Assembly: GCA_016841185.1 (NCBI GenBank)
Contig: JAENZQ010000001.1
Coordinates: forward strand, 10,364-74,363
Source of the DNA: Anaerovorax odorimutans
GTDB lineage: Bacteria > Bacillota > Clostridia > Peptostreptococcales > JAAYPU01
Length of the DNA: 64,000 nucleotides
Direction: 5' to 3'
The first letter of the stretch is position 1. Each line of letters begins with the position of its first letter. The notes below the pieces were generated by a model. It searched no databases. It was given only the letters and a program-made list of their open reading frames with translations, and was not told the DNA's origin. A program made the translations under genes and the position numbers. Positions 6,058-28,955 of the stretch are shown piece after piece.

Positions 6058-6129
6058 ACTAACAAATCCCACAGGCCTCTGTCGTTGACATGCACACTTA
6101 GTGGGCTTTTTGCATTTAAGGAGAAAAAT

Positions 6130-8347: not shown

Positions 8348-10903
8348 CTAAAGAGGCTCAATATCTGTGATTTCAAAGCCGCTCACATCGCATCGCTCTT
8401 TCAGTATCGAGAAATCAAGAGCCCACGCTTTTTTTGTTTCATTCTCGAAACGCATCGTTTTATTGCTCTCTATAAAAAAGTCACTTTGCCTCAATTGCTT
8501 CAAAAACTGGTTATATGGAAGACATTCACCAGTGATTGCATAATCGCGTCTGTACTTGGTATAGCGGTCATATACATCACAGAAACGAATCCCGATAACC
8601 TTGCCATCTTTATCAAAAGTGTAGTCTTGATTCGGAGCCAGTTTCATCCGGGCCATGATTTCCAGGGTCTGTTCTACAATGCTCTTGTTATTGCTGCCGC
8701 CATCCAGCAAGTACTCCTGCACACCGTTTTGAAGATATCGAATACATGTCCCTTTGTTAATGGGAAATACTTCAGCCCACGTTACATTAAGGAATTCACA
8801 CAGTTTGTTTACTAGGCTCAGTCCGGCATAGCAACAGGCGAGATTATTGACGATACGAGATGGAAACTCATCAGATATCTCTGACTTTGCTTCCTCATAC
8901 CACTTCTCTGCCTCAGCAACCGATACTCTGAGTGCTATATCCAGCAGGCTCCGACCGAAGCTGCCAAGCAGATCCGCTTTTGCACACAGCTTATAAAATG
9001 CTTGTCTGTGGCTGGCTGGTTTTAAGTCCTTCTTGCTGAATAGCAATTCTATGCTCCGTTCTCTGATGGCCGCTTCATCCGGCGATTCCTCACCAGCTAC
9101 AATAATAGGTGCCAACAGTTCATAAGTAACAGCACTTTGATCCGCCCTACCGCGGACACCTTCATGGCCGTCATATGCATCTCGAAGATGGTTGTATAAG
9201 GCATTTAGCCTTAACTTATCTATCTTTGAAGGCTTGAACTCATCCATCAACTGCGGTATCAGATTCGATGATGCAGATTCCTTCATCAGCGTAAATGCAG
9301 TAACCTGTGTAGCCGCGCGGATTTTACTGCATGAAAATACCGGCAGAATAACCCGCTCCAATGTATTACTTTTTCCGCTGCCTTGTTCTCCGACAAGCAA
9401 TAAATGAGGAAACTTGATACCTGATTTTTTTAGATGCGGTTTGATAAAGCACCCGGCCACCCAGGCCATTACTGATACCGTTTTTATGGGTTCGTTATAG
9501 CTGAGAAGCCATTCACCAAGCATAATAAGCTGTTCCTTTGTCAATGGTTCATAGGTTAGGATATCGGTTGTTATGCTTTTATACTTATCAAGCTGCACGA
9601 TATCTTCGACAATGTTGCCTCCGGCTTCAATGGCACCATCCGTTGAAACATATACCATCCGCCCGCCATGCTCATAAATTCCAAGAGCCTTGACCCCTGT
9701 TTTCCTTACCCACTCCATTTCAGATATATAACCTTTCAGCAGTTCCAAATCTCCTTCTGAGCCAAAATAGCCTAAGGATATTGTCCGGCGGTTCAAGATA
9801 TTTTTAAACTTTTGGATGTTATTGAAGTCGGTAGTCATAAATGTCTGGCGGTATATTTCATCGCGGATTGTAATAAGATCAGCAGTCATCTGCGTTTCAT
9901 CTTCTGATACAATCATCTCCACCGGCTGAATGATAAAGTTTGTTATAGGATACACACTTTCGCCTCTGGTGCGGTAATACCTGCCCTCATGTTCAAAGAT
10001 AACTGACTCGCTTTCGCGGCTGTATACGTTCTCTGTGACTTCAATGGCCTTATCCAGTGTCTCCTGCCCATATGTTGCGCCGCTAGCATGATGTACCGTA
10101 TCCCACTTTTCCCGGAATAACCCGGAATTTCTAAACAGCCTGTCCATCTGCTCTTTGTTTTTGCCTGACCAGAAAGCCAGCATACAGCAAAGAGCAAGGT
10201 CGGCTTCGGACTGGCTCGGATACCCTGCTTCCTGCCATTTTCCTTCCCATAGCAGATTAAATTCCTTATGGTTTTCGGCTGTCTGGGCTTTCTCCAGAAT
10301 TTCTTCATCTGTAAGCGGCTCTAGCTTAACCCCCTTACGGTCTTTCTTGCTTTTCCCTCTCCGCTTTTTACTTTTGATATAATTCTCATGTATCCAGGCC
10401 AGTGCCCCGTTATCTTCAGTAATGTAATCAGGAGTCCTTGGCAGTCGCTCGCCAGTCATTGTGAAGTATCTGCTGTGGGCATACATTTCAACACCGGTTT
10501 TAGTGTTTTTATTGCCCTTGGCAGGCATCTCCCCTTTATAGAAAATATGAAGCCCAGTTCCTGAAGGGCTGATTTCCGTATATGACGGAAACCGCTCAAG
10601 GATATCCTTGGCGGTATCGTTTAATTCCCCAGTGTATTTGTCGCGGCAGTGATCTATGTCTATCCCTACTAAGCCTCCGCTTTTTGCGAATACAAAACCC
10701 AATCCGGTATAGAGATATTGTTCTTTTGCCGCAATCGCATCGTCAAGGGTCGACCAGTCGTTTGGGTTAGTGCTTGAGGCTTTTCTTCCGGTTAAGGGAT
10801 TGTATGGGATTTTACTGTCTTTCCCGTCCTTTGTGTTTGGTTCCAGGCGCCAGCAGATCCATTGCTTCTGGTCAGCCAGTTCTTTAGGAAATGAGATGCT
10901 CAT
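8348..10903 (-). CDS. Phage/plasmid primase-helicase (N-terminal Prim-Pol domain plus P-loop NTPase)
   Basis: N-terminal ..GLGFVFAKSGGLVGIDIDHC..SPSGTGLHIFY.. (bifunctional primase-polymerase motifs). Walker A ..LLLVGEQGSGKSN... 851 aa. Confidence 0.85.
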   Translation of the reverse strand: MSISFPKELADQKQWICWRLEPNTKDGKDSKIPYNPLTGRKASSTNPNDWSTLDDAIAAKEQYLYTGLGFVFAKSGGLVGIDIDHCRDKYTGELNDTAKDILERFPSYTEISPSGTGLHIFYKGEMPAKGNKNTKTGVEMYAHSRYFTMTGERLPRTPDYITEDNGALAWIHENYIKSKKRRGKSKKDRKGVKLEPLTDEEILEKAQTAENHKEFNLLWEGKWQEAGYPSQSEADLALCCMLAFWSGKNKEQMDRLFRNSGLFREKWDTVHHASGATYGQETLDKAIEVTENVYSRESESVIFEHEGRYYRTRGESVYPITNFIIQPVEMIVSEDETQMTADLITIRDEIYRQTFMTTDFNNIQKFKNILNRRTISLGYFGSEGDLELLKGYISEMEWVRKTGVKALGIYEHGGRMVYVSTDGAIEAGGNIVEDIVQLDKYKSITTDILTYEPLTKEQLIMLGEWLLSYNEPIKTVSVMAWVAGCFIKPHLKKSGIKFPHLLLVGEQGSGKSNTLERVILPVFSCSKIRAATQVTAFTLMKESASSNLIPQLMDEFKPSKIDKLRLNALYNHLRDAYDGHEGVRGRADQSAVTYELLAPIIVAGEESPDEAAIRERSIELLFSKKDLKPASHRQAFYKLCAKADLLGSFGRSLLDIALRVSVAEAEKWYEEAKSEISDEFPSRIVNNLACCYAGLSLVNKLCEFLNVTWAEVFPINKGTCIRYLQNGVQEYLLDGGSNNKSIVEQTLEIMARMKLAPNQDYTFDKDGKVIGIRFCDVYDRYTKYRRDYAITGECLPYNQFLKQLRQSDFFIESNKTMRFENETKKAWALDFSILKERCDVSGFEITDIEPL

Positions 10904-15006: not shown

Positions 15007-15423
15007 TTACCTTGCTGCTTTCCGCACAGTTACTGTTGTTTTTTCGAAGACATTCACAAGGCCTTTCAACCAGTCCGGAAGCTCGTCCCCATTCTCCGCA
15101 ATCTGTTCTTTAACAAATGCCGACAGAGAGTTTGCATTGACTGTTTCATAGATGAGTTCTCCGAAGCCTTTACTGCGCAGAGTATCAAACAGTTCTTCCT
15201 TCATGCCTGCGGCAGCACTGGCTCTTGTTGTCGTTGAAAGGCAGAACATTGTTCCTGCTCTTGTGAAGTTTTGCGTCTCACTGCTGATCATCAGCTCAGA
15301 CAGGCGGTATTCAACATCGTCAATCTCCGCATTTATGCTTTTCAGTTCCTCTTCAACAGCCTTCTTTGCCTCGCGCAGCTCCTTAAGGTGGTCAGCAAGT
15401 TCAAACATCGCATTATTGCTCAT
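15007..15423 (-). CDS. Coiled-coil phage protein (possibly Sipho_Gp157-like)
   Basis: Start set to ATG at 15423 (GGAGG 7 nt upstream). N-terminal coiled-coil ..LKELREAKKAVEEELKSINAEIDDVEYRL... Weak family guess. Confidence 0.4.
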   Translation of the reverse strand: MSNNAMFELADHLKELREAKKAVEEELKSINAEIDDVEYRLSELMISSETQNFTRAGTMFCLSTTTRASAAAGMKEELFDTLRSKGFGELIYETVNANSLSAFVKEQIAENGDELPDWLKGLVNVFEKTTVTVRKAAR

Positions 15424-16920
15424 AGCTTTCACCTCCTTCTGGAGCAAAGGGGTTTGTTCCTTTGCGGTAGTCGTCTATTAGCATTTTTGCAAGATCTGCC
15501 TTATTGCGCAGAGCTGTCAGAATTTTTGAGTCTACGGTACCCTTGGCGATAAGGTAGATATATGTGCAGCCGTTCTTCTGTCCAACTCTATGGATGCGGG
15601 CTTTTGTCTGCTCAAAATTCGACATGGAGTAATCAAGGGAGTAAAATACCATTGTGCTTGCAGCGGTTAGTGTAATACCAAGTCCAGCAGTTGCAATCTG
15701 GCCTACAAACACCATGCAGTCAGTATCATATTGAAACCGGTGGATTTGCTCTTGGCGGTCCTTAGTTGCACCATAAATACACGCATAGCCGATGTCCTTC
15801 TTCTCCAGCATCCTGCATATGGCATGGATTTCAGGAATAAACCTTGCTATGACAACCAGCTTATGTCCTTCTTGAATACTGCTTTCAAGGATATCTTCAA
15901 GAGCATTTAACTTGGCATCACTGACTTGCTCGATTTTCCCACCGTCATCGCTTCCGATGAAGCCCCCGGTTAATTGCGAAAGGCGAAGCAAGCGTGTTAG
16001 TATGTTTGTTGCTGTTACTTCTCCTGCTGACAGCTCAGTATAGCTTTGTTTGACAAGCTCTTTATATTTTTTCAAAGTTACAGGTTCAAGCTCAATATAG
16101 CGAATAATATCGGTGGTTTCCGGCAAATCCAGGCACTCCGCTTTGGTCGCCCGAAACGCAATGCTGTGAATCCTTTTCATCAAATCCTGTTCCATTGATT
16201 TTTTCAGCACCGGTGTATGGTTGCCATAGCCAACCATGTTGAAATACCGGTTTCGGAATGCATAAAAACTGTTACCAAAGACACGAGGATCAAGAAACTT
16301 ATACTGGCTGAATACATCTATGGCTTTGTTAGTTATAACCGTTCCTGTCAGTAGGAGCCGATACCGTGCAAGCAAGCCCAATCGGTGCATTGCTTTTGAA
16401 ACCGCCGTATTATGAGTTTTAATTTTGTGTCCTTCATCGGCAACGATAATGTCAGGATGCCAGTTTGCCAGTTCCTTTTCCATTCGCCATGCAGATTCGT
16501 AGTTGATTACCACTACATGGACACCTTCGCCAGTTAAAAATCTTAGTTGTTGGATTTTCTTTTGAATCGTGCCATTAAGGACTATAAGCTGATATGGGAA
16601 ATTTGCGAACCGTTTAAACTCGTCTTCCCACACTCCCAGAATGGAAAGCGGCGCAACTATTAGCACACGTTTTATTCTTCCTGCAGCAAGCAATGCTCCT
16701 ATAATGGCGATTGAGACAAGAGTTTTCCCAGTGCTGGTCAGCCCATTTCCATCAGGAGCGCTGCACCCCATCCGGAAATGGCAGAAACACCACCACCCTT
16801 CAGAAGTTCGAATAGACTGCAGATGAAATTGAAAGCACGAATCTGATGCTTGTATGGTCTGCCCTTTATGGGCATTGGAATTATTTGCTGCACTTTTGCA
16901 TTGCTCATTGAGGCTTGCAT
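15413..16920 (-). pseudogene. SNF2-family helicase interrupted by a 1-nt frameshift inside motif I
   Basis: Upstream ORF (start ATG at 16920, GGAGG RBS) reads ..RPYKHQIRAFNF..GAALLMEMG then stops (16738). The downstream ORF in the -1 frame continues LTSTGKTLV..., and joining them restores the SNF2 motif I (xLLxxEMGLGKT-like). Later motifs are present: DEGH (..IVADEGHKIK..) and the helicase C-terminal motif (..QTKARIHRVGQ..). Confidence 0.75.
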
Positions 16921-17023
16921 CTTATATCCTCCATCCTTCAATTTTGAGGGTTGGCCAACTCTCTGACTCAATGCTACTCGAATTGTTAAAGCCTGTCTGG
17001 ACATCTAAAGTCCATGTTTTGGG

Positions 17024-17092
17024 CAAAAAAATAGCCATTATGCAGTAAGGTTTTTGCGCCTTTTTTGCATAATGGCTTAAAATCTCATTATA
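17024..17092 (-). promoter_or_regulatory. TATAAT element followed by a long terminator-like hairpin plus U-run, upstream of the SNF2 operon
   Basis: Minus-strand TATAAT = plus 17087-17092, immediately followed by ATGAGATTTT (half of the 19-mer seen at 5571/5932). Hairpin GCCATTATGCA (17034-17044) / TGCATAATGGC (17067-17077), followed on the minus strand by UAUUUUUUU. Confidence 0.4.
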
Positions 17093-17110
17093 ATAGCCGG
17101 TTTAAAATAT

Positions 17111-17136
17111 AAAAAGTTGGACTTCCGAAGTCCAAC
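17111..17136 (-). terminator. Intrinsic terminator of the ImmA-like gene
   Basis: GTTGGACTT-CCG-AAGTCCAAC perfect 9-bp stem immediately after the stop codon, followed on the minus strand by UUUUU. T-run on the other side as well (bidirectional). Confidence 0.7.
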
Positions 17137-17142
17137 AATTTT

Positions 17143-19062
17143 TTAACTTATCATTTCTTTATATGCCTTCGCACAAAGAGGGGAAAGTCCCAAGGCTTCC
17201 AAAACTTCATTGCATTCATATATTGAATGCCCTCTATACGAATGGATAAGCTTTTTATACGCCAATTGCTGTGGAGTGTTATTGAGAGTATATCCGGCAA
17301 GCTTTAATATCTCTTCACTGTATGTAGGGCTTAGCTCCAATCCTATGCAGATTGCCACAACGGTTTCTAAAGTTGGATTGTTAAGTTCATTATTTTTTAT
17401 TCTGTCATATGTTTTTCCTGAAAGCAAAGTCTTTTCTATAAAAACAACCTTATTGTAGCCTTTTCTTTTGATATGTCCACATACCGCTTGGGAAAATGTC
17501 TGGGTTGTGCGGCTCAAATGCTGACCTTCTTCGACGAATTCTTCGTGAAATTTCTTTAGCTCTTCTGAACGATTAAATACCTCCATATTATGCTTGTCCG
17601 GATTAAATGTCGGCACTCTGTTATAATCCGGTGTAGCTTTACGGAACATTATAGAATCGAGGTATACTACAATGTCCATTTTGGAGGCTTTATTTAACTT
17701 TAAATCAAACAGAAGGCAACATTCATCTACATGCAGTTTTGCATAGTCTGTAAGATCAAGGCTTCCATTTTCTAATCTTTTAATATACTTGGAGTCATTA
17801 ATTACATAATGACCGTCAACATAAATAAAATTGCCGCTGTCTATGATCTTTGCAAATTCCGGATTTGCATAGTATTCAAAAAAGGAATCGCTTAGGCTAA
17901 TACTGTATGTTTGGTTATTTTGCAATGAGTCTGCCTTAAATGAATAATTGCTGATAAAGTGGTCATTAACGTATGTATATACGCCTTCAGCTTCCTTATA
18001 TCCAAGGTCAAGCATCCTTATTTTGGCTGCTATCCTTGACACCTGGAAGAAGTCAGCTAATTCATACAAGACATTTTCCATTATATTTAACCTGTCGTGA
18101 GTACCAAAAAGGAGCTCATTCTTTTTAATTAGCTCCTCAATCTTTTTGATAGTCGTTGATTTAGGCATAAGGATGCGAGGTGCGATTCCGTTAGCATGCC
18201 ATTCCATCCAGTCTTCTGGCGTCCATTGCTTTTTGTATTTAGTTGTTTCGTTTACTCTACAGCTTATGAGCAAAGCATCGCTGTTATATGTCTTAACTAA
18301 CTCATGGTATTTTCTATGCTTATACCAGTGAACACATTCATGAATAATGGTATTGTTCATGCACCCTACGTTTCGCATGAAATAAACATTAGGATCCACG
18401 AGAATAGTTCCTCTTGAAACTTCCAAAGGCTTATATGTTCTTTCATTTCTGTCGTAATATTCTATCGTACAATCTCCAAAAACTATTTGACCAAATATAG
18501 TGAAATGCTTTGTTAACTGGATTTCCTTAACCTTAAGCCCCATTCTTTTCGCTACTTCATCTACCGGAATAGGCACAGGAGTACTTAATGCTTCTGGGAA
18601 AAATTCACTTAGAAACTCGGTAGCAACATCGTCAAACTGTTCCTTTTCTATAATTGGCACTAAATACTCAGACAGTCGGCCTAATTTGCTTTCTCTGTAC
18701 TTGTTGTATATTGAAACAGAGTTGATTTGAAAATTCTGAATTCCGTCATCAAGATCAGCCTTACAGGAGATACGGAACCATTGTTCTATACCGTCATTTT
18801 CGCGATTCCTTCGCACTGTTTCTGCTATTTCAACTTCGGCTGAAACAATTACATCAAATAAAATACTATTGCCTGGTGAATCGGTTATGTCAATCGTTAT
18901 AATGTCAAAATCGGATAAAGCCGCTTCATCCGGTGATTGCACGCGGTATGAGTTGGATTCCAGCTTATCCGGGTTGTCCTCAATATACTCGGACAATTCG
19001 TCAAAGAGTTCATTGTAATACATATTTGCAATAACATCTCTGAACGAGCTGACGCTTGCCAT
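17143..19062 (-). CDS. Large ImmA/IrrE-family (M78-like) zinc metallopeptidase domain protein, 639 aa
   Basis: Start set to ATG at 19062 (GGGAGG 6 nt upstream; the track start is a TTG). HExxH motif ..NTIIHECVHWYKH.. in the middle of the protein, with about 230 aa N-terminal and about 340 aa C-terminal regions that I cannot assign. Divergent from an XRE HTH gene. Confidence 0.7.
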   Translation of the reverse strand: MASVSSFRDVIANMYYNELFDELSEYIEDNPDKLESNSYRVQSPDEAALSDFDIITIDITDSPGNSILFDVIVSAEVEIAETVRRNRENDGIEQWFRISCKADLDDGIQNFQINSVSIYNKYRESKLGRLSEYLVPIIEKEQFDDVATEFLSEFFPEALSTPVPIPVDEVAKRMGLKVKEIQLTKHFTIFGQIVFGDCTIEYYDRNERTYKPLEVSRGTILVDPNVYFMRNVGCMNNTIIHECVHWYKHRKYHELVKTYNSDALLISCRVNETTKYKKQWTPEDWMEWHANGIAPRILMPKSTTIKKIEELIKKNELLFGTHDRLNIMENVLYELADFFQVSRIAAKIRMLDLGYKEAEGVYTYVNDHFISNYSFKADSLQNNQTYSISLSDSFFEYYANPEFAKIIDSGNFIYVDGHYVINDSKYIKRLENGSLDLTDYAKLHVDECCLLFDLKLNKASKMDIVVYLDSIMFRKATPDYNRVPTFNPDKHNMEVFNRSEELKKFHEEFVEEGQHLSRTTQTFSQAVCGHIKRKGYNKVVFIEKTLLSGKTYDRIKNNELNNPTLETVVAICIGLELSPTYSEEILKLAGYTLNNTPQQLAYKKLIHSYRGHSIYECNEVLEALGLSPLCAKAYKEMIS

Positions 19063-19226
19063 ACCGTACCTCCCTAATAACATTTCATCATGCAGACCAG
19101 ATATTTCCTTATGTAAATTATAGCATAAATTGCGAAAAACACAATAATTAATTTGCGAACTCAAATTTTTGTTGTGTTTTAACCAGCTTTATGATATTCT
19201 TTATATTACAAGGCGAGGTGACAATT

Positions 19227-19442
19227 ATGGCCGTTAGCTATAAAAAACTATGGAAACTCTTAATTGATAAAGATATGAAAAAGAAAGATTTAAGAGAAGC
19301 GGCTGGTATTAGTACATCTTCTATGGCAAAACTCGGCAAAAACGAAAACGTAACTACTGATGTGCTTGTGAAGATTTGTAAGGCCTTAAAGTGTGATATT
19401 TCAGATATTATGGAGATTGAGCCGGATGACAAAGATAAATAG
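19227..19442 (+). CDS. Small XRE-family helix-turn-helix protein (71 aa)
   Basis: ATG at 19227 with GAGGTG 6 nt upstream. MAVSYKKLWKLLIDKDMKKKDLREAAGISTSSMAKLGKNENVTTDVLVKICKALKCDISDIMEI is a canonical Cro/C1-type HTH. Confidence 0.85.
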   Translation: MAVSYKKLWKLLIDKDMKKKDLREAAGISTSSMAKLGKNENVTTDVLVKICKALKCDISDIMEIEPDDKDK

Positions 19443-19479
19443 AGCTATGCTTATGTAAATACATAAAGGAGTGCGTATT

Positions 19480-22400
19480 ATGACTGCAAATCAGAAAAAA
19501 CTAATTAACCTGTTAAAAGAAATGTTCCAGTTCGATCAGGCTGACCTCGATTTTGGAATTTACCGCATCATGCGGATGAAACGGGAAGAGATCAGTCGTT
19601 TTATTGAAGAAGACCTTCCCGCGCAAATAACCAATGAGCTACGCGAACTTGTTTCGGTATCCGCCGAAGTTGATATGGCAGAAATTGACAAGCAGGTAAC
19701 AGACGCAAAATCTTTGAATATAAGCGAGACTGCAAAAGCTTCCATTATTGCTGAGCTTGAAGCAAAGAAAAAAGCTCTTGCAGAAAAGATTGACATATCA
19801 TCAGTAGAGGCAGATGTATACAACCATCTGACAAATTTCTTTTCCCGTTATTATGATGAAGGCGATTTTATCTCCCAGCGCCGCTACAAGGACGGTGCTT
19901 ATGCCATCCCTTATGAGGGCGAGGAAGTAAAGCTATACTGGGCAAACGCTGACCAGTATTATATAAAAACAAGCGAGTATTTCAAGGATTATACATTTAA
20001 GACCGCTTATGGGGATACTGTGCGCTTTAAACTGGTTGAAGCCGAAACTGAACAGGACAACAACAAGGCGAATGAAAAAAGGTTCTTTCAGCTCCATACA
20101 GAAAAACCGTTTGAATTAGTCGACGGAATTTTTACGATTTACATGGAATATAAAAACGGTGGAAAGAAAAATCAAGATGAATGCATCGGCGAAATCGTCA
20201 AGGCTTTTTCCGAGGCACAGGCTCGATATACACAGTTCTCCGCATTGTTAGCGACAAGTGATGGCAAAACGCTGCTTGAGCGGCAACTCAAACGGTATAC
20301 TGCGCGCAACACATTTGATTATTTCATCCATAAGGATTTGGGTAAATTCCTGCGTCGAGAACTGGACTTTTATATAAAAAACGATGTTATTTTCCTTGAC
20401 GATATTGATGAACAAGACGAAGCTAAGACAAAAGAGTATCTGACCAAGGCTAAAGTTATCCGCAAGATTGCTCACAAGATAATAGCTTTCCTTGCCCAGA
20501 TTGAGAATTTTCAAAAGAAGCTGTACCTGAAAAAGAAATTTGTGGTTGAAACAAATTACTGCATTACGCTTGACCGCATCCCGGAGGAATTGTATCCCGA
20601 AATTGCCGCAAACGACGATCAGCGTGAGGAATGGGTGCGCCTTTTTGCCATTGACGAAATCGAAGGCGATTTAACCCAGCCCACATACTCTGTGCCGCTG
20701 ACCGTAGAATTTTTAAAGGCAAACCCTTACCTTGTGCTGGATACGGCATTTTTCAGTGCGGAGTTTAAAGATAAACTTATCGCAGGCGTAGACAATTTGG
20801 ATGAAAACCTTGATGGGTTATTAATACATAGTGAGAATTTTCAAGCCCTTCAATTATTACAGACAAGGTATAAAGGACAAATCAAATGCATTTATATCGA
20901 TCCGCCTTATAACGCAAAATCAAGTGAGATATTATATAAAAATAATTATAAGCATTCCTCTTGGTTAAGTCTTATGTCAGACAGAATAAAAGCCTCTCAA
21001 ACACTTTTTAACGATAAACCTGTTTTTATTTGTGCAATTGATGAGGTTGAACAAGAACGTTTAGGTATATTACTTTCCCAATTATTCAATGAAAATTATT
21101 TTGGCAAAACCGCTGTAAGCATAGTTCATAATCCATCAGGACAGCAGGGAGATAATTTTTCTTATACCCACGAATTTGCATACTTCATTTATAATATTCC
21201 AGGAAGAAGCATTGCTGAGCAACTTAGGGAAGATCCAAATGAATGGGATAAGAGAAATTTTAGAGACGTTACGGGCGACGAATCCTTGCGAACAGCAGCT
21301 AAAACCTGTTTTTATCCTATCTTAATCAAAGATGGGACTATCATCGGTTTTGGGGATGTTTGTAATGATGATTATCATCCAGAAGTTAATGTATTTAGAG
21401 ATGATGGAGTTATCGAAGTATATCCGATTGATCCTCAAGGTATAGAAAGGAAATGGAGATTTGGAAGAGATACCGTAGAAACAATTAAAGATCAACTATT
21501 AGTCAACTATATAAACAATCGTAAAGTTTATGATATCCAGCGTTTAAAGAAGACGTTTAATTATAAATCATGTTGGCATGCCTCCATCTATTCGGCTAAC
21601 AATTATGGAACTCAACCATTAAATCAAATGTTTGGATATCAACCATTTTCATATCCAAAGTCAATATTCACTGTTAAAGATTGTATTTACGCTGGCCTTA
21701 ACGAGCAAAAAGCAGCCACAGTTTTAGATTTTTTCGCCGGCTCCGGCACCACTGCTCATGCAGTTATCAATCTTAACCGAGAAGATGGCGGAAGACGTAA
21801 ATATCTCCTTGTAGAAATGGGTGAATACTTTGACACCGTAACAAAACCACGTATTCAAAAAGTAATTTATTCTATGGATACCGAAACACAAAAAGGCTGG
21901 CGTGATGGTAAACCTGTTTCCCGCAAAGGTTCATCCCACGCATTCAAGTACCTGCGTCTCGAGTCTTATGAGGATACATTGAACAATATCGTACTCAGAG
22001 GCGGACAATACGATATGCTGGGCAGTGCCCGGGAGGGTTATCTCCTTTCCTATATGCTTGACGCTGAAGCTGAAGGAAGCAGCTGCCTGCTAAATATTGA
22101 CAAACTGGACAAGCCCTTTGACTATAAAATGAACATTACTCGTAATCTGGAGAGCCGCGAGCAGCCAGTCGACCTTGTTGAGACCTTTAACTACCTGATA
22201 GGGCTTACTGTTGCACGCAGCTATGCTCTCACAACCTTTGACGCCGAATTCATCATAGGCGAGTACGGTTCAGTTTCCGCTACCCTTAAAAATGGCAACA
22301 CCTATAAATTCAAGTCGGTTGAGGGCACTCTTCCGAACGGTGACAAAGCGCTTGTTATATGGCGCGAAATGACCGGCGATACTGTTAAAGACAACGCAGT

Positions 22401-22566
22401 TTTAGACGCATACTTCCGGCAGACGTTTGCCGATGCGCGTAGTTACAAGAAAATCTTTGTTAATTGCGACAATAACCTTCAGAACCTGCGCACAGAAAAC
22501 GAAAATTGGCGTGTTATCCTCATCGATGAGGAAATGAAAAAGCGCATATTTGAATACAGTGAGTAA
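19480..22566 (+). CDS. Type III Mod-like beta-class N6/N4 DNA methyltransferase with a long N-terminal extension (1028 aa)
   Basis: ATG at 19480 (AAAGGAG upstream). Motif IV IYIDPPYN (DPPY at 20899-20910) preceded by ..LLIHSENFQALQLL.., as in EcoP1I-type Mod. Motif I FAGSGTT at 21733-21753. About 470 residues precede DPPY. Confidence 0.85.
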   Translation: MTANQKKLINLLKEMFQFDQADLDFGIYRIMRMKREEISRFIEEDLPAQITNELRELVSVSAEVDMAEIDKQVTDAKSLNISETAKASIIAELEAKKKALAEKIDISSVEADVYNHLTNFFSRYYDEGDFISQRRYKDGAYAIPYEGEEVKLYWANADQYYIKTSEYFKDYTFKTAYGDTVRFKLVEAETEQDNNKANEKRFFQLHTEKPFELVDGIFTIYMEYKNGGKKNQDECIGEIVKAFSEAQARYTQFSALLATSDGKTLLERQLKRYTARNTFDYFIHKDLGKFLRRELDFYIKNDVIFLDDIDEQDEAKTKEYLTKAKVIRKIAHKIIAFLAQIENFQKKLYLKKKFVVETNYCITLDRIPEELYPEIAANDDQREEWVRLFAIDEIEGDLTQPTYSVPLTVEFLKANPYLVLDTAFFSAEFKDKLIAGVDNLDENLDGLLIHSENFQALQLLQTRYKGQIKCIYIDPPYNAKSSEILYKNNYKHSSWLSLMSDRIKASQTLFNDKPVFICAIDEVEQERLGILLSQLFNENYFGKTAVSIVHNPSGQQGDNFSYTHEFAYFIYNIPGRSIAEQLREDPNEWDKRNFRDVTGDESLRTAAKTCFYPILIKDGTIIGFGDVCNDDYHPEVNVFRDDGVIEVYPIDPQGIERKWRFGRDTVETIKDQLLVNYINNRKVYDIQRLKKTFNYKSCWHASIYSANNYGTQPLNQMFGYQPFSYPKSIFTVKDCIYAGLNEQKAATVLDFFAGSGTTAHAVINLNREDGGRRKYLLVEMGEYFDTVTKPRIQKVIYSMDTETQKGWRDGKPVSRKGSSHAFKYLRLESYEDTLNNIVLRGGQYDMLGSAREGYLLSYMLDAEAEGSSCLLNIDKLDKPFDYKMNITRNLESREQPVDLVETFNYLIGLTVARSYALTTFDAEFIIGEYGSVSATLKNGNTYKFKSVEGTLPNGDKALVIWREMTGDTVKDNAVLDAYFRQTFADARSYKKIFVNCDNNLQNLRTENENWRVILIDEEMKKRIFEYSE

Positions 22567-22578
22567 GGAGGCAGCATT

Positions 22579-25500
22579 ATGGCAAGAAGAAATAGGCAAC
22601 GTGCTAATGAGCCGCAATTAAAATTTTATCAAAAACTTCTGCTGAACCGCTACCTGCTCAGTCAGTTTAGTGTATCAAGTTTTAAAGAATTGGCTGCAGA
22701 ACTTAAGAAACCTGCCTTTGAAGAAATTGATAACGAAAGCGTTACCGGTTTTTACAAACAAATCGTTTCTCAACTCGGCACGAAATGCAAAATCCCTCAG
22801 GAAAAGCTGGCGGAATATGATTTGAATATAGTGGCCCATTTAAAGAAGATTAATGAAAGGCGGGATGAACCGCTTTCCCTCAAATACTTTCAATACCTCT
22901 CGCTGCTTTTTGTTGAGTACTACCTTGACAACTACTTCAATAACCGGCAAGGCTTACTTGACGGTCTAAATGAGCTTGTTGCCGATTTCAACGAGCAGTA
23001 CCTCAATGATGCAGTTGAGTTGTATGAAGAAAGTGACTTGAACAAAATTGCAATCTGGAACGCCACCGGTAGCGGCAAAACCCTGATAATGCACATTAAC
23101 TACCATCAGTACATTCATTATTCAAACTGTAAATTGCCGGACGGCGCTACATATATCCTTCTAACGCCAAAGGAAGGCTTATCCCTCCAGCATATTGAGG
23201 AATTTGAGGTATCTGGAATACCAGCTAAAATATATGATAAGTCAGCAAGCCGCTGGATGCGTTATGAAGGCGAAATTAGCGTTCTCGAGAATACAAAACT
23301 GGGAGAAAAGGATCAAGATACAATTGTATCTGTTAAGCGGTTTGGAAACCAGAATGTTGTTTTTGTGGATGAAGGCCACAGGGGGTCATCATCCGGTAAG
23401 GAAGGAAAATGGCAGAAATTTCGCGATGAGCTTTGCTCAGACGGTTTTTCGTTCGAATATTCCGCAACCTTTGGGCAGGCTATAGCTGCTTCCTCAGACA
23501 AATCACTTGCCAAACGTTACCAGAAGTGCATTATTTTTGATTATTCATACAAATACTTTTATCAAGACGGATATGGCAAAGACTATAACATCCTTAACCT
23601 TGCCAACGACAGCGATGAAGCAAAACGAAAGCTTTATCTGACAGCTTGCCTAATTGCGTTTTATCAACAAAAAAAGATATATTTGACATGCAAAAACGAA
23701 TTTGAACGCTTCAATATTGAAAATCCGCTGTTTGTTTTTGTCGGAGCTAGTGTAAATGCCGTCCGTACTGAGCGTGGACGCAAAGTTTCCGACGTTGTGG
23801 ATATCCTGCTGTTTTTCAAGGATTTTATTTCTAATACCAGTGAATCGGTTGCAAATATACAACAGTTACTATCCGGAAACACAGGATTGCTTGACAATCA
23901 TAATCGCGACATTTTTAGAAATGCTTTCCCATACTTGGAAAGCGAAGGGTTGTCCGCCGCTGATCTTTATAATGATGTTTTGAAAACAGTATTTAACTGT
24001 ACTTCCATTGGATCCATGCTCCATGTTGAGAATCTGCGCGGAATTAGCGGTGAAATTAGTTTACGTCTTGGCGAGAACGAACCCTTTGGTGTTATTAATG
24101 TCGGGGATGACAGTGCTTTATTAAAGCTATGTTCAGAAAACGGCTTCCATACAGATACCATATCATTCTCAGAGTCGCTGTTTCATAAAATCACAAAGCC
24201 GGATTCCACAATCAATATATTGATTGGCTCAAAAAAATTCACCGAGGGCTGGAACTGCTGGCGTGTATCGACAATGGGGCTTATGAATGTTGGCCGTAGC
24301 GAGGGAAGCGAAATTATTCAGCTTTTTGGACGAGGCGTACGTCTGAAAGGCTATTCACTGTCGCTGAAACGCAGCGCTTTTTATAAAAAGGAAAATCCAG
24401 AAATTTCTGTACCGAAGTATATAAGCATTTTGGAAACACTGAATATTTTCGGCGTCCGCGCTGATTATATGCATCAGTTTAAGGAATTCCTTGAAGCCGA
24501 AGGTGTTCCGCCCGAAAAAGGCCAACCGATAGTATTAACAATGCCGGTTATCCGGAACAAACTCTATAAAAAAGATAACCTGTACACATTGCGTGTCAAG
24601 GGCGGGCTTGATTATAGAAAGCATGCTAAAAAACCTTTTTTGAGATATGTTGAGGGTATCGTTGTTACGCTGGATTGTTATGCAAAGGTGCAGTTTGAAA
24701 CATCAAAAACACATTCATCAAGTGAGGTGACAAAAAATCAAACGACACTCAAACCCGAACATTTAGCTTTCCTAAACTATAATCGCATCTATTTCGAAAT
24801 ACTGCAGTATAAGAATAAAAAAGCGAGATACAATTTTAATATTAATAAAAATGATATATATGATTTGCTGAACAATCCTGAATATAACACCTCATGGTAC
24901 AAATTGCTCATTCCTGAAGATGAGCTGAAAATACGTAACTATGAAGACTACAGACGGTTTGAAAAGATAGCTGTTGCCTTGCTAATAAAATATTTCGACA
25001 GGCTCTATTACTTGGAGCGCAATCGCTGGGAATCGATGGTTGTTGGTTATGAGCTTGTCGCTATGAGTGATGAGGGTGATAATTTCCTGAACGAAGAAAA
25101 GGACGAATATACCATAAGCATCAGCAATACTGATGAAAATGAAGCCATGATTACCTGGCTTAAACGAATAATAGAAAAAGTAAATGAGGCGAAAGCGAAA
25201 AAACAAATCCTGGACTTTATTGAACAACGTGCTGACATGGAAGTTATCGGATTTCCAGCTCACTTATATGATCCTCTGCTTTATCTGGCAAAGAATAATG
25301 TGGAAATCGTTGTATCACCGGTGGCTTTAAACGAAAGCGAAGCAAAATTCATAAAAGATTTACGCCAACACCTTAAAGACAATGAAGCATTGTTTTCAGA
25401 TAAAGAACTTTACATTATCCGAAACAGGAGCAAAAAAGGAATTGGATTTTTTGAAGATAGCGGTTTTTATCCGGATTTCATTATGTGGCTTATTGTCAAT

Positions 25501-25779
25501 GGAAAACAATATATAACATTCATTGACCCACATGGTCTTAGGCAAGAAAGCATTACTTCAAGCAAAATCAGGCTGCACAAAAGCATTAAAACCAGTATTC
25601 AAAGCAAGCTTGCAGAACCATCGGTAGTGCTTAATTCCTTTATTTTGTCACCTACAAAATATGCAGAACTTCCGGACAGAAGTACCCCTAAAGCAGAGTG
25701 GATAGAAAATAATGTTCTTTTTATGGAGGACGTCAATTACATTCAGAGACTTTTTGACACAATTAAAAAACAAGCTTAG
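22579..25779 (+). CDS. Res-like SF2 helicase (ResIII/DEAH type) with C-terminal PD-(D/E)xK-like region (1066 aa)
   Basis: GGAGG RBS, 12 nt after the methyltransferase stop. Walker A ..NATGSGKT.. (23068-23082), motif II ..VFVDEGHRGSS.. (23368-23379), motif III SATFG, motif VI ..QLFGRGVRL... C-terminal ..GFYPDFIMW..(17 aa)..FIDPHG... Confidence 0.8.
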   Translation: MARRNRQRANEPQLKFYQKLLLNRYLLSQFSVSSFKELAAELKKPAFEEIDNESVTGFYKQIVSQLGTKCKIPQEKLAEYDLNIVAHLKKINERRDEPLSLKYFQYLSLLFVEYYLDNYFNNRQGLLDGLNELVADFNEQYLNDAVELYEESDLNKIAIWNATGSGKTLIMHINYHQYIHYSNCKLPDGATYILLTPKEGLSLQHIEEFEVSGIPAKIYDKSASRWMRYEGEISVLENTKLGEKDQDTIVSVKRFGNQNVVFVDEGHRGSSSGKEGKWQKFRDELCSDGFSFEYSATFGQAIAASSDKSLAKRYQKCIIFDYSYKYFYQDGYGKDYNILNLANDSDEAKRKLYLTACLIAFYQQKKIYLTCKNEFERFNIENPLFVFVGASVNAVRTERGRKVSDVVDILLFFKDFISNTSESVANIQQLLSGNTGLLDNHNRDIFRNAFPYLESEGLSAADLYNDVLKTVFNCTSIGSMLHVENLRGISGEISLRLGENEPFGVINVGDDSALLKLCSENGFHTDTISFSESLFHKITKPDSTINILIGSKKFTEGWNCWRVSTMGLMNVGRSEGSEIIQLFGRGVRLKGYSLSLKRSAFYKKENPEISVPKYISILETLNIFGVRADYMHQFKEFLEAEGVPPEKGQPIVLTMPVIRNKLYKKDNLYTLRVKGGLDYRKHAKKPFLRYVEGIVVTLDCYAKVQFETSKTHSSSEVTKNQTTLKPEHLAFLNYNRIYFEILQYKNKKARYNFNINKNDIYDLLNNPEYNTSWYKLLIPEDELKIRNYEDYRRFEKIAVALLIKYFDRLYYLERNRWESMVVGYELVAMSDEGDNFLNEEKDEYTISISNTDENEAMITWLKRIIEKVNEAKAKKQILDFIEQRADMEVIGFPAHLYDPLLYLAKNNVEIVVSPVALNESEAKFIKDLRQHLKDNEALFSDKELYIIRNRSKKGIGFFEDSGFYPDFIMWLIVNGKQYITFIDPHGLRQESITSSKIRLHKSIKTSIQSKLAEPSVVLNSFILSPTKYAELPDRSTPKAEWIENNVLFMEDVNYIQRLFDTIKKQA

Positions 25780-25781
25780 AA

Positions 25782-25826
25782 AGGCAGGCTGCTCATATAA
25801 TCATTTAGCTTGTCTTTGTTTTTCTG
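25782..25826 (+). terminator. Weak terminator-like hairpin after the helicase gene
   Basis: AGGCAGGCU-16 nt-AGCUUGUCU (9 bp including two G-U pairs that only work on the plus-strand RNA), followed by UUGUUUUUCUG. The long loop lowers confidence. Confidence 0.35.
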
Positions 25827-25891
25827 TATTAGGCTGTTGTTAATTTTTTTAACGGCTAAGTCTCTGCTAAATGATAGAAGGGGGGGTTATT

Positions 25892-27106
25892 ATGTATCAG
25901 TTAACAATTGAAGACATAGAGCGCAGTAATAGCCTTGCACTTCAACCGGGTCGAACTGCTTTTATTGATGAGTGCGGGAACTTCGGATTTGACTTTGAAG
26001 CTAAGGGAACTTCTGAAGCAGGTGGCCCTTCGCTCTATTATATTGTTTGCGCCGTTGTTGTAAAAAACGAGAATATTAGTGCTCTTGAAATTGAAGCTAA
26101 TAAAATTCGCCAAAATAATGGTTTTCAAACCGGAGAAATGAAATCTAGCTTAATAGGCAATAACCATAAGCGTAGAATAAAGATACTCACTGAATTGCTA
26201 AATCTTGATTTTTCACTGGTTATGCTTATTGCAGATAAACAAAAATTTTATAGGGATTCGCCTCTTACTAATTATAGGGAGTCATTCATAAAGTACCTTC
26301 ATCAAAAACTGTATAATGAAATGTACGCGGCATATCCAAAACTTAAAATCGTTGAGGATGAATATGGATTATCAGAGTTTCAAAAGGGGTATCGTGAATA
26401 TGTTTGTGCTAACAGACCACAACTAAACCTACTTAACGAATATGATTTTGATTATGTCAACAGTAAACATAGTCCGATAGTACAAATTGCAGATATTATT
26501 GCAGGTTCAACCATGCAGCACCTTTTAGACAATAAGGCTCCAAATGTCTTGAAAATATTCCAAGGCAAAATTAGGGGGCTTGTCAATTTTCCAAGCACAT
26601 ATTCTTCCTTCCTTGCAGGAATTAAGGCAGATAAAAGCTTTGACGAAAATATATATGTGTTAGCCGACCATTGTGCAACTCAATATATAGACTCTCATAT
26701 AGATACCGATGAAACAGATACAAGGATGCGTGTTTTGTTCTTAAAGCATTTGCTATGGGTAGTTCGTAATATTAATCCCCGTAAATATATTTCATCGGGC
26801 GAAATTATCAAGGTTCTATCCGACCTTTCTGATAGTAAGGTTCGTCGTGACTATTTATACCGAAGAATAATTGCTCCTTTGCGCGATGCTGGCGTAATTA
26901 TAGCCAGTTGTTCTCATGGCTATAAAATACCTACGTGTATTGATGATATCTATACGTATGTAAACCAAACAAATGGCATTGTTGGCCCTATGCTCAATCG
27001 TGTTGAAAAATGCAGACAACTTATTCTTTCTCAAACTGACGGTTCTCTTGATATTTTTGACGATCCTGCCCTAAAAAAATACAAGCGTTATTTCGGAGAT
27101 TATTAA
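25892..27106 (+). CDS. DUF3800 domain protein with winged-helix-like C-terminal region (404 aa)
   Basis: ATG at 25892 (GGGGGG 7 nt upstream). N-terminal ..TAFIDECGNFGF.. and later ..VQIADIIAGS.. match the two conserved DUF3800 motifs as I remember them. The C-terminus ..SSGEIIKVLSDLSDSKVRRDYLYRRIIAPLRDAGVIIASCSHGYKIP.. looks like a wHTH. Confidence 0.7.
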   Translation: MYQLTIEDIERSNSLALQPGRTAFIDECGNFGFDFEAKGTSEAGGPSLYYIVCAVVVKNENISALEIEANKIRQNNGFQTGEMKSSLIGNNHKRRIKILTELLNLDFSLVMLIADKQKFYRDSPLTNYRESFIKYLHQKLYNEMYAAYPKLKIVEDEYGLSEFQKGYREYVCANRPQLNLLNEYDFDYVNSKHSPIVQIADIIAGSTMQHLLDNKAPNVLKIFQGKIRGLVNFPSTYSSFLAGIKADKSFDENIYVLADHCATQYIDSHIDTDETDTRMRVLFLKHLLWVVRNINPRKYISSGEIIKVLSDLSDSKVRRDYLYRRIIAPLRDAGVIIASCSHGYKIPTCIDDIYTYVNQTNGIVGPMLNRVEKCRQLILSQTDGSLDIFDDPALKKYKRYFGDY

Positions 27107-27414: not shown

Positions 27415-28779
27415 TCATTTCTTAACCCTTGACATCAATACTACCGTCTCCACGTGCACCGTATACGGAAACATATCCACCGGCTGTACTTCTTTTGTCA
27501 TATATCCATTTGCTTCAAGGTATTTCAGGTCGCGGGCAAGGGTAGAGGGGTTGCAGGAGACATAGACGATCCTTTCCGGCTGCATTTCAGTCATGGTAGT
27601 CAAAAGTTTTTCATCGCAGCCTTTTCGGGGCGGGTCTACTACTACCACGTCTGCTTTATAACCTTTTTTATATAGTTCCGGAACGACTTCTTCAGCTTTT
27701 CCAACGTGAAATTCGGTATTCTCGATATGATTAATCTCTGCATTTCTTTGAGCATCTTCCACTGCCTGCTGCACGGTTTCTACTCCTATGACTTTTTCGG
27801 CCTTCTTGGCAAGAAATAAGGAAATGGTGCCGATGCCGCAGTATAAATCAAATACGGTTTCATTGCCTGAAAGTTGTGCGTATTCCAAGGCTTTGTTATA
27901 AAGCTGTTCCATTTGTACAGGATTCACCTGATAGAATGATAACGGTGATATTTGAAATCGAACATCGGCGATACTGTCTATTATGTAACCTTTGCCGTGT
28001 AGCGTTATGTTTTTATCCCCCAGTATCACATTTGATTTCTTTGTATTGATGTTCTGCACCAATGTTGTGATTTCAGGCAGTTTTTTATTTATATTTTCAA
28101 TCATTTCATCTTTATTAGGTAGATGAGTTCCGTTAACAACAAGGATGAGCATGAATTCTTTGCTGTTTACACCTATTCTTGTGACGATATGTCTTAATAA
28201 TCCTTTTCCTGTCTTTTCGTTATATATAGAGAGCTTGAATTTCTTTATAATATGTTTTATTTCTTTAATAATCTTATCGTTTATCTCATGCTGAATCATA
28301 CAGGTATCGCATTGTATGATGTCGTGGCTTTTCTTCCGATAAAAGCCTATTTCTATTTGTCCATTTTTATCTGTCAGGGGAAATTGGGCTTTATTGCGGT
28401 ATCTTTCAGGAGAGTCCATTCCAATGACATCATGGATTTGTACCTCATGCAGGCCGCCGATTCGCCGGAGGTTGTCCGATACTATTTTTTTCTTTATTTC
28501 CAGTTGTTTTTTATAAGAAATGTTTTGTATCTGGCAACCGCCGCATTGATTGAATATCGTACATTGGGGATTGACTCTGAAAGGAGAATATTCAAGATAT
28601 TCCACTACTTTTCCTATGCCATAATTTTTCTTTAAAGTTATGACTTCAATCTTTACTTTATCGCCGATAACCGTTTCTTCCACAAATATTGTGAATCCGT
28701 CTATTTTTCCGATTCCTTCTCCGCTGTGTCCCATGTCGATGATTTCTATTTCGTATGTTTGATTAAACTTTATGTCCAT
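27415..28779 (-). CDS. rlmD: 23S rRNA (uracil-C5)-methyltransferase, RumA/RlmD (TrmA) family
   Basis: Start set to ATG at 28779 (AGGAG RBS). N-terminal TRAM-like domain, Fe-S Cys cluster ..CTIFNQCGGCQIQN.., SAM motif ..VFDLYCGIGTISL.., C-terminal ..YVSCNPSTLARDL... Confidence 0.9.
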   Translation of the reverse strand: MDIKFNQTYEIEIIDMGHSGEGIGKIDGFTIFVEETVIGDKVKIEVITLKKNYGIGKVVEYLEYSPFRVNPQCTIFNQCGGCQIQNISYKKQLEIKKKIVSDNLRRIGGLHEVQIHDVIGMDSPERYRNKAQFPLTDKNGQIEIGFYRKKSHDIIQCDTCMIQHEINDKIIKEIKHIIKKFKLSIYNEKTGKGLLRHIVTRIGVNSKEFMLILVVNGTHLPNKDEMIENINKKLPEITTLVQNINTKKSNVILGDKNITLHGKGYIIDSIADVRFQISPLSFYQVNPVQMEQLYNKALEYAQLSGNETVFDLYCGIGTISLFLAKKAEKVIGVETVQQAVEDAQRNAEINHIENTEFHVGKAEEVVPELYKKGYKADVVVVDPPRKGCDEKLLTTMTEMQPERIVYVSCNPSTLARDLKYLEANGYMTKEVQPVDMFPYTVHVETVVLMSRVKK

Positions 28780-28955
28780 TTTATTCTCCTGTTCAGTTAT
28801 TGGTTTCCGGTGACTACAGGTTGCTCTGCTGCGCTCATAAAGACAAGAAAACAAATCGCCGCGTCGGGAGGTTTTCGCGATGACAAGCAAATGATTTCTG
28901 CTCTGCGTTCGCAATGGCAACGAAAAAGATCATGGGCAGGCACAGAGACCGCCCC

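Follow-up and report, generated by a model that had tools for sequence, protein, structure and literature searches.

The 64,000-nt window studied here (contig JAENZQ010000001.1 of Anaerovorax odorimutans, positions 10,364 to 74,363) carries, from its first position to ~27.3 kb, part of a prophage. Towards the end of this prophage lie two divergent genes: a large gene on the minus strand (17143–19062), encoding a 639-residue protein with an HExxH motif, and a small gene on the plus strand (19227–19442), encoding a 71-residue helix-turn-helix (HTH) protein that leads a restriction–modification (RM) operon. An earlier reading of the letters alone (hereafter, the sequence-only reading) had described the pair as a protease/repressor switch of the kind known from ImmA/ImmR, IrrE/DdrO and CapP/CapH. 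The divergent layout itself was confirmed by the open reading frame (ORF), its ribosome-binding site (RBS), membership of the phrog_4031 family and an HECVH motif at 18328–18342. Comparison of the locus with its relatives revealed two copies of a palindrome right after the large gene, a new finding of this analysis, and these two matching sites suggest that the large protein alone, through an HTH domain of its own, controls the phage early genes.

Domain architecture of the large protein

The large gene ends with a stop codon at 17143–17145. A mechanical ORF call extends from 17143 to 19164, with a TTG start and 673 residues. Because a GGGAGG RBS lies 7 nt 5' of ATG 19062, and because the alignment to the phrog_4031 profile begins at residue 36 of the longer ORF, about at this ATG, the protein is taken to be 639 residues long. 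The phrog_4031 profile, annotated as 'unknown function', covers the protein end to end (positions 2–623 of 626, E 1.4e-183). More than 1864 homologues of ~633 residues each were found, and an exhaustive profile search yielded 1096 clusters (50% identity, E<=1e-30), nearly all of 610–650 residues and matched full-length. NCBI names them 'ImmA/IrrE family metallo-endopeptidase' or 'helix-turn-helix transcriptional regulator', and literature searches found no experimental work on the family. Its members share four domains: an N-terminal alpha+beta domain, an M78 protease, a Cys/His-rich middle domain and a C-terminal HTH_26-like domain. The AlphaFold2 (AF2) model has a mean predicted local distance difference test score (pLDDT) of 82.8 and a predicted template modelling score (pTM) of 0.62.

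The N-terminal domain (residues 1–125; 18688–19062, minus strand) is built, in the AF2 models, by one long helix and four long antiparallel strands, with pLDDT 80–97 over residues 10–120. A Foldseek search of the N-terminal 232 residues against the PDB gave no significant match, with weak NTF2/VirB8/BPI-like similarities at E values of at least 2.7e-3, and when the full model was compared with the PDB and BFVD, neither the N-terminal nor the middle domain found a significant match. Among PDB sequences, a profile search returned weak HTH matches only.

The M78 (ImmA/IrrE-type) metallopeptidase domain spans approximately residues 130–360 (17983–18675, minus strand) and was delimited by its motif, Pfam, PADLOC and Foldseek. 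HECVH occupies residues 241–245, and H241, E242 and H245 are invariant over 44 homologues, the set on which all conservation and Pfam counts for the family were taken. E272 (18247–18249), 27 residues past the second His, is conserved in at least 90% of them and is the probable third zinc ligand. In IrrE, the zinc and catalytic residues are H82, E83, H86 and E113, with the Glu at +27 from the second His. The window protein scores 18.8–19.0 bits against Pfam Peptidase_M78 (PF06114), below the gathering cut-off of 22; across the family, 41 of 44 members match M78 at E<=0.05 (best E 2e-6). The PADLOC capP model (PDLC04141) matches at 7e-9 over the M78 core only, positions 63–168 of 242. The top Foldseek structure is IrrE 3dti (E 6.8e-4, probability 1.00, 210 aligned columns), for which the template modelling (TM) scores are low on account of the multi-domain query. 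By sequence comparison, then, the protein is a divergent member of the M78 superfamily, an assignment to peptidases that is weak for the window sequence alone and solid across the family; the ImmA/IrrE-type peptidase proposed by the sequence-only reading is supported by the family's M78 matches, capP and 3dti. Since the catalytic residues are invariant, proteolysis is probably part of the protein's function.

The middle domain (residues 361–520; 17503–17982, minus strand), delimited by AF2 secondary structure and conserved columns, is beta-rich with a long helix. It contains a conserved H444-x2-E447-C448-C449 cluster (17716–17733), whose columns are invariant or near-invariant, and the motif A[RKL]xH[IVA][DH]ECC was used as the family signature in searches. 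The Cys/His cluster is a possible second metal or redox site.

The C-terminal domain (residues 521–639; 17146–17502, minus strand) is an XRE/HTH_26-like DNA-binding domain according to Pfam and Foldseek, with the recognition helix SGKTYDRIKNN. Within the family it matches HTH_26 in 26 of 44 members and HTH_3 in 13, and it resembles the SinR N-domain (Foldseek TM 0.76). The sequence-only reading had left both terminal regions unassigned: the C-terminal one is thus accounted for by an HTH, and the N-terminal one keeps no significant fold match. BLASTP of the small HTH against this C-terminal domain gave no match, and neither close paralogy nor a common site is claimed for the two.

In three related loci (L033 at 8593–9804, also L029 and L022; comparison loci carry L numbers), a canonical 403-residue HTH_19 + Peptidase_M78 protein is encoded directly upstream of the large gene and in the same direction, so that these phages possess two tandem M78 proteases.

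Twin palindromes beyond the large gene

The first candidate operator, O_A (GGACTTCGGAAGTCC, 17119–17133), lies within hairpin T1 (17116–17136, minus strand), a bidirectional terminator-like structure 7 nt past the large gene's stop. The second, O_B (GGACTTTAGATGTCC, 16999–17013, minus strand), follows 120 nt past O_A, and between the two stands hairpin T2 (17024–17077, minus strand), with a 12-bp stem AGCCATTATGCA/TGCATAATGGCT and a T-run. A -10-like hexamer, TAGCAT (16971–16976), is positioned 22 nt past O_B without a good -35 and forms the core of a predicted early promoter (16950–16976, minus strand). The same geometry, a TAnnAT hexamer 22–24 nt past O_B with no recognisable -35 and the first early gene next, was seen in ~30 diverse loci.

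The conserved core is a 15-bp palindrome GGAC-N7-GTCC (consensus cGGACAT-N3-ATGTCCg), present twice. The first copy lies 9–32 nt past the stop codon; from there to the second, the median spacing is 120 nt in the genome loci and 119 nt in the viral ones. Two copies were counted in 37 of 71 genome loci and a single one in 12; the density of GGAC-N7-GTCC is 6.06/kb in the 200 nt past the stop and 0.0155/kb elsewhere. An independent set of 80 IMG/VR loci gave 3.77/kb versus 0.0153/kb, with the same offsets, and the enrichment past the stop is thus 250- to 390-fold. Of 74 loci, 56 have a terminator-like hairpin behind the stop, compared with 18 of 370 shuffles, and the long hairpin with T-run between the palindromes recurs in distant loci. 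The sequence of the T1 stem is conserved between distant relatives, which is unusual for terminators. O_B has no T-run behind it, nor does O_A in the clade with GGAAGT half-sites. An Rfam scan of 16600–19500 gave no match.

The palindrome sequence varies with the recognition helix of the large protein, as counted over distinct C-terminal sequences. Proteins with the helix [KR]T[IVYLM][QDRS]R are accompanied by GGAC-N7-GTCC in 59 cases, by no palindrome in 12 and by another palindrome in none. The helix R[MIL][IV]QDYR goes with GGAAGT-N3-ACTTCC in 9 of 9 cases, at the same two positions and in the same geometry, and KTIQ[NT]MR with CGGAA-N7-TTCCG in 4 of 5. In Streptococcus suis, where the helix reads LSTIQRFET, a different palindrome adjoins a TATACT. 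The gene downstream of the twin sites is variable (SNF2 in the window, a 105–114-residue ORF or a sigma-like gene elsewhere) and the small HTH is often absent, so the large gene is the sole constant neighbour of the two sites. On the strength of this constancy and of the covariation between helix and palindrome, we consider it quite probable that the large protein's C-terminal HTH binds O_A and O_B.

Other elements were noted in this segment. A perfect 10-bp palindrome near the predicted transcript start, GTTGGCCAAC (16950–16959), is unique in the window; in several clades such a palindrome stands 11–17 nt past the predicted early -10, as GTTGGCCAAC in L010, L014, L016 and L023 and in a GTTAGCTAAC-like form in L022, L025, L028 and L029. 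It could be a further operator for another factor, or a 5' RNA hairpin. A TATAAT/TATACT hexamer 22–26 nt past O_A, just before T2 (17024–17105, minus strand), is present in the window's clade and L010, not in other clades, and could yield a ~60-nt RNA consisting of the T2 hairpin only. An invertible promoter flanked by the twin palindromes was considered and rejected, the orientation of the segment being the same in all nine near-identical loci.

The small regulator, its cargo and the prophage

The two divergent genes are separated by 164 bp (19063–19226), as the sequence-only reading had described, and the search for operator palindromes in this interval gave a 14-bp palindrome, O1, and a half-site copy. 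O1 (TTTGCGAACTCAAA, 19152–19165) sits between two -35 boxes and is perfect, as TTTGCGAACGCAAA, in L005 and L017; the half-site copy (TAAATTGCGAA, 19126–19136) falls within the spacer of the large gene's predicted promoter. Together they make up the predicted operators of the small HTH (19126–19165, no strand), identified by palindrome search and comparison of loci. The large gene's predicted promoter (19117–19144, minus strand) consists of a -35 TTGTGT (19139–19144), a 16-nt spacer and an extended -10 TGcTATAAT (19117–19125), and the ATTATAnCA element at a fixed distance from O1 is conserved in loci whose large protein is only 36–42% identical. The predicted promoter of the small HTH and the RM genes (19172–19200, plus strand) combines TTGTGT, a 17-nt spacer and TGaTATTCT, a pattern seen also in related loci. 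No further copy of the small-HTH operator was found in the window, a lone 1-mismatch match in the primase gene being at chance level. The O1/O2 sites overlap the large gene's promoter, and the early promoter bears a different palindrome. Given this overlap, the link between the two genes is probably transcriptional and not one of protease and substrate; the small HTH probably also represses the large gene's promoter.

The small protein, delimited by Pfam and its own RBS, is a VanU-type HTH_26 regulator (HTH_26 E 2.9e-22). It is 65% identical to VanU_G (PDB 3TYR, E 1.9e-23), whose chain its residues 1–66 match, and reaches 101.1 bits against NCBIfam VanU (NF000090), under the equivalog cut-off of 150. 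Unlike VanU_G, it has no van genes near it, and it is best described as a VanU homologue and not an orthologue. VanU_G negatively autoregulates; its footprint on its own promoter runs from -70 to -20 and takes in two 14-bp inverted repeats, and the O1/O2 layout resembles it (PMC4405338). The small HTH gene ends 37 nt before the likely start of a type III Mod gene (ATG 19480), in the place where RM controller (C) proteins sit, as the sequence-only reading had recognised. It answers to the functional description of a C protein, being the first gene of an RM operon with palindromic boxes beside the -35 of its own promoter. In a PDB sequence search (E<=1), the few matches included VanU_G and ClgR and no C protein; the likeness to C.AhdI, C.PvuII and others is therefore functional, not familial. 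We take the small HTH to be an autoregulator of the RM cargo operon, in the manner of a C protein.

This cargo block (19480–27106, plus strand) comprises type III Mod (19480–22566, PADLOC 3.5e-192), type III Res (22579–25779, PADLOC 5e-204) and, as its last gene, a defence-like DUF3800 protein (25871–27106). The company kept by the VanU-type HTH was surveyed over 79 species-representative genome loci and 66 viral loci. It stands divergent from and adjacent to the large gene, at 65–99% identity, in ~22 of the 79 genome loci and 15 of the 66 viral loci, including some where the large protein is only 36–42% identical. In nine loci it is the first gene of a co-directional cargo block of which the large gene is the last. 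The remaining loci have leaders of other HTH families (HTH_17, HTH_3, HTH_3+S24) or none. Conversely, VanU-type HTHs are found at the head of RM operons that lack a large protease in their vicinity, of type III on a plasmid of Bacillus badius and of type I in Monoglobus.

Phages whose large proteins are at least 96% identical share the small HTH at 86–99% identity (at least 95% except in L005 and L017) and carry unrelated cargo. Nucleotide homology stops right past the DIMEI codons of the small gene (window 19400–19442), at the same place in L003–L017, and what follows is always RM or defence-like, of many kinds: type I/IIG, II, III, McrBC-like, UvrD-PDDEXK and Z1. This alignment places the cargo-swap junction at the gene's 3' end. 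The small HTH gene looks like a fixed anchor and promoter for exchangeable cassettes, a conserved leader that serves type I, II, III and McrBC-like cargo alike; the VanU-type leader appears to be a universal docking point for RM cassettes, which would explain the swapping of defence cargo. The product is a bare 71-residue domain with no C-terminal domain and with a variable tail at the cargo junction, and is therefore not suggested as a protease substrate.

Several variants of the leader were observed. In the Aliibacillus group (L078–L081, 4848–6170), a VanU-type HTH_26 is fused to the N-terminus of a C5 cytosine (Dcm) methyltransferase, and in L028 (4165–8085) a type I HsdR ORF has an HTH_26 match at its C-terminus. 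In a relative from Streptococcus sanguinis (L074, 6832–9788), the gene divergent from the large gene encodes an HTH_3+S24 (LexA/HdiR-like) regulator at the head of an SOS mutagenesis cassette, phage cargo made up of a Y-family (UmuC-like) polymerase gene and a YolD-like gene. This regulator was considered as the phage CI and rejected, since as the leader of the UmuC/YolD cassette it belongs to the cargo.

The prophage that harbours the large gene is of the Phi-m46.1/Heliusvirales type and adjoins the host gene rumA (27415–28920, minus strand), which marks its end and is given as the integration site in the 'rum' prophages of S. suis. It encodes ParB-methyltransferases, a small terminase subunit, Abi_2, an NrS-1-like primase-polymerase and a Bro/ANT protein, then PolA, a Pam3 gp33-like protein and an SNF2 helicase, followed by the large gene and the HTH-Mod-Res-DUF3800 block. 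The large protein is encoded, at 29–37% identity, in phage records of two kinds, Phi-m46.1-like prophages of Streptococcus and gut phages of Ca. Heliusvirales; by megablast, no phage record matched the 10–30 kb part of the window. The large gene is second from the prophage end in S. suis phi-SsuSSJ27_rum, with the serine recombinases at the opposite end. From the replication module downstream, rumA at the prophage end and the phage relatives, the large gene is therefore placed as the last backbone gene before a cargo slot beside the attachment site. It is conserved together with the phage replication module and not with any type of defence.

Large proteins 96–98% identical (P0004, P0010), with equally similar replication genes, occur in L003–L009, L012, L017 and L026, whose records are assigned to Tepidanaerobacter, Thermovenabulum, Christensenellales, Caldicoprobacterales, Acetivibrio, Lachnoclostridium, Eubacteriales and Heyndrickxia. 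Such a spread of taxa implies either a very broad phage host range with recent spread or wrong metagenome bins.

Proposed control of the early promoter

The model that we judge best, and to which we give about an even chance, has the phage early promoter gated by a single-chain protease/HTH regulator. Its four parts in one chain would be a zinc protease, two possible signal-sensing domains and a C-terminal HTH. The large protein would be made in the lysogen and would occupy O_A and O_B, which bracket terminator T2, with O_B immediately upstream of the promoter for the early and replication genes (SNF2, PolA, primase). Bound in this manner, it would hold the early promoter in one state until a proteolytic event, most simply a cleavage between its own protease and HTH parts, switched the output; the trigger would be as in ImmA, IrrE and CapP, and the lytic programme would then start. 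The small HTH would meanwhile damp transcription of the large gene through the overlapping operators, while autoregulating the RM cargo operon.

The steps of this model differ in strength. Presence in lysogens is probable because two tandem terminators insulate the large gene from the early genes and because, in the co-directional loci, it follows 14–55 nt after RM genes that are necessarily expressed in the lysogen, with an RBS and no hairpin in the gap. That binding at the twin palindromes gates the early promoter is, in our estimate, reasonably probable. The sign of the control is less certain: the insulation of the gene and the analogy with ImmR and CI suggest a repressor, a tentative assignment that falls somewhat short of probable, and O_B, centred near -43 of a promoter with no -35, suggests an activator, which overall we hold to be rather unlikely. 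Self-cleavage as the switching step is a possibility that we regard as somewhat doubtful. As to the trigger, the activation of IrrE by zinc/redox (PMC7907104) and that of ImmA/PprI by single-stranded DNA, as cited in PMC12637031, are precedents for a sensing protease and, by analogy and together with the Cys/His cluster of the middle domain, may serve as leads only.

Several observations weigh against this model. In roughly 30% of the genome loci and 55% of the viral ones no recognised palindrome was found, and in many clades O_A lies within the terminator hairpin, so that its conservation is perhaps partly at the RNA level. The covariation counts ignore shared ancestry. With O_B near -43 and no -35 in the promoter, the predicted geometry would favour an activator over a repressor; the linker of the large protein has no conserved cleavage motif in the 44-homologue alignment; and the domain arrangement in the AF2 model is of moderate confidence (pTM 0.62). 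The part of the prophage outside the window could also encode another repressor.

The strongest competitor is the two-protein switch of the sequence-only reading, in which the small HTH represses the large gene and thereby the lytic genes, and the large protein senses damage and cleaves the HTH; both divergent promoters are then de-repressed with positive feedback, and the large protein's own HTH activates the early promoter, for which O_B at ~-43 with no -35 would be suited. The two genes are indeed adjacent, with a common, compact control region and a half-site in the large gene's promoter spacer; the divergent pair recurs where the large protein is only 36–42% identical; and the co-directional loci present an HTH-led operon that ends with the large gene, as in immR-immA. 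The pairing is nevertheless not obligate. More than half of the loci lack a VanU-type HTH, leaders come from the unrelated HTH_26, HTH_17, HTH_3 and HTH_3+S24 families although the protease is conserved, and VanU-type HTHs lead RM operons with no such protease. The 71-residue protein offers no cleavable C-terminal domain, its tail is a variable recombination junction, and its operator is found nowhere else in the prophage part of the window. We therefore hold the two-protein switch to be improbable. The large protein looks like a self-contained phage regulator, dedicated neither to the small HTH nor to the defence operon: the HTH is absent in most loci and leads RM genes with no protease, cargo swaps behind it, it is a bare domain, and the large protein's own C-terminal HTH covaries with the twin palindromes.

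A further explanation holds that the neighbourhood is merely positional, the large protein being an anti-defence or host-takeover protease, or a toxin-like Xre/COG2856 module; the palindromes would be no more than conserved terminators, or RNA elements to which a different factor binds. In many clades O_A does make a good intrinsic terminator, no relatives by fold are known for the N-terminal and middle domains, and the literature searches gave no experimental study of the family. This explanation is quite unlikely, given that no T-run follows O_B, or O_A in the GGAAGT clade, that the palindrome tracks the recognition helix in three specificity classes, and that the catalytic residues and the HTH are both strongly conserved.

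The weakest alternative, a CapP/CapH-like defence regulator with which protease and HTH raise RM expression on DNA damage or phage attack and which has no role in the prophage life cycle, can draw on the capP match and on the variable RM/defence block that always adjoins the large gene, and is very improbable because that match is limited to the common M78 core, the large gene is found also beside antibiotic-resistance genes or a UmuC cassette as cargo, or with no cargo at all, its conservation follows the replication module and no type of defence, and the twin operators face the replication genes and not the cargo.

As they are defined, the two-protein systems ImmA/ImmR, IrrE/DdrO and CapP/CapH do not include the large protein, which may work like a fused version of them. 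ImmA, of ~170 residues, acts on a separate ImmR of ~130 residues from the same operon. The window protein shares with the ImmA/ImmR systems (ICEBs1; pneumococcal prophage ImmAR-type, PMC12637031) the logic of an M78/COG2856 zinc protease beside XRE-type DNA binding, and a place in a mobile element where the lysogeny/cargo side borders on the early genes. It differs in that protease and HTH are joined in one 639-residue chain with two extra domains, that its operators lie after the gene, and that the adjacent small HTH is dispensable in most relatives. In the surveyed loci the protease is not constantly accompanied by a specific XRE repressor gene, and the small HTH lacks the C-terminal dimerisation domain with cleavage site of such a repressor, in contrast to ImmR, DdrO and CapH.

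IrrE (PprI) of Deinococcus provides the best structural match (3dti), with HExxH and the Glu at +27. It is itself a multi-domain protein, in which an HTH-like motif and a sensor-like GAF domain accompany the protease; as far as fold searches show, the large protein's N-terminal and middle domains are unrelated to GAF. IrrE cleaves a separate repressor, DdrO, within its C-terminal dimerisation domain (PMC12828697), whereas no DdrO-like partner is conserved beside the large protein. With CapP/CapH of CBASS (anti-phage signalling systems that rely on cyclic oligonucleotides) and other defence systems (bioRxiv 10.1101/2022.04.27.489752), the locus shares the M78 similarity and an HTH and protease beside a defence operon. 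Unlike CapP, a small M78 protease encoded with CapH beside a defence operon, the large protein is ~three times the size of the 242-position capP model and its gene tracks the phage backbone; PADLOC capH gave no match for the small HTH. The proposed logic resembles that of the self-cleaving repressors LexA and lambda CI, in which a DNA-binding domain and the inactivating protease reside in one polypeptide and two operators flank the controlled promoter region. Those proteins combine an S24 serine protease with an N-terminal HTH; the large protein is a zinc metalloprotease with a C-terminal HTH and putative self-cleavage.

The wider proposal, which we advance tentatively, is that the large protein is a 'one-protein ImmA-ImmR' and the master lysis-lysogeny switch of Phi-m46.1/Heliusvirales-type phages, acting through the twin operators, with a specificity that was re-programmed several times (GGACAT, GGAAGT and CGGAA half-sites) along with the helix. 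In Firmicutes, these temperate phages serve as vectors for mef/tet/optrA resistance genes and for RM cargo; phages of this lineage are common in gut and digester Firmicutes and carry clinically important resistance genes in streptococci. Induction of Phi-1207.3 by mitomycin C is only ~2-fold (PMC9927172). If the proposal is true, it would offer a concrete handle on induction, namely the protein, its catalytic residues and operators with predicted specificity classes, and would add a fused, metalloprotease-based counterpart to the self-cleaving repressor design of LexA and CI.

A few further features of these prophages were recorded. In streptococcal and Aliibacillus relatives, the first gene past the twin operators encodes a small sigma-70-like factor (L082, 2856–3425; L085, 2985–3581; L081, 12151–12756), with 27% identity (E 6e-20) between S. 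suis and phiStag1. A homologue of the S. suis/Aliibacillus gene was looked for in the window and not found, and phiStag1 has the sigma gene with no large-protein gene annotated within the 14-kb stretch examined. In the window, the SNF2 helicase gene is seemingly split by a 1-nt frameshift (16738–16920 and 15413–16771, minus strand): a 60-residue N-terminal piece starts at ATG 16920 with a GGAGG RBS and ends in ...GAALLMEMG*, and the Walker A part (LTSTGKT) runs on in another frame, which could reflect a sequencing error, a pseudogene or a programmed event. Two other genes are defence-like: Abi_2, on the opposite strand inside the prophage (6085–7047), and a Phd/YefM-Uma2 fusion protein just outside it, beyond rumA (28956–29702).

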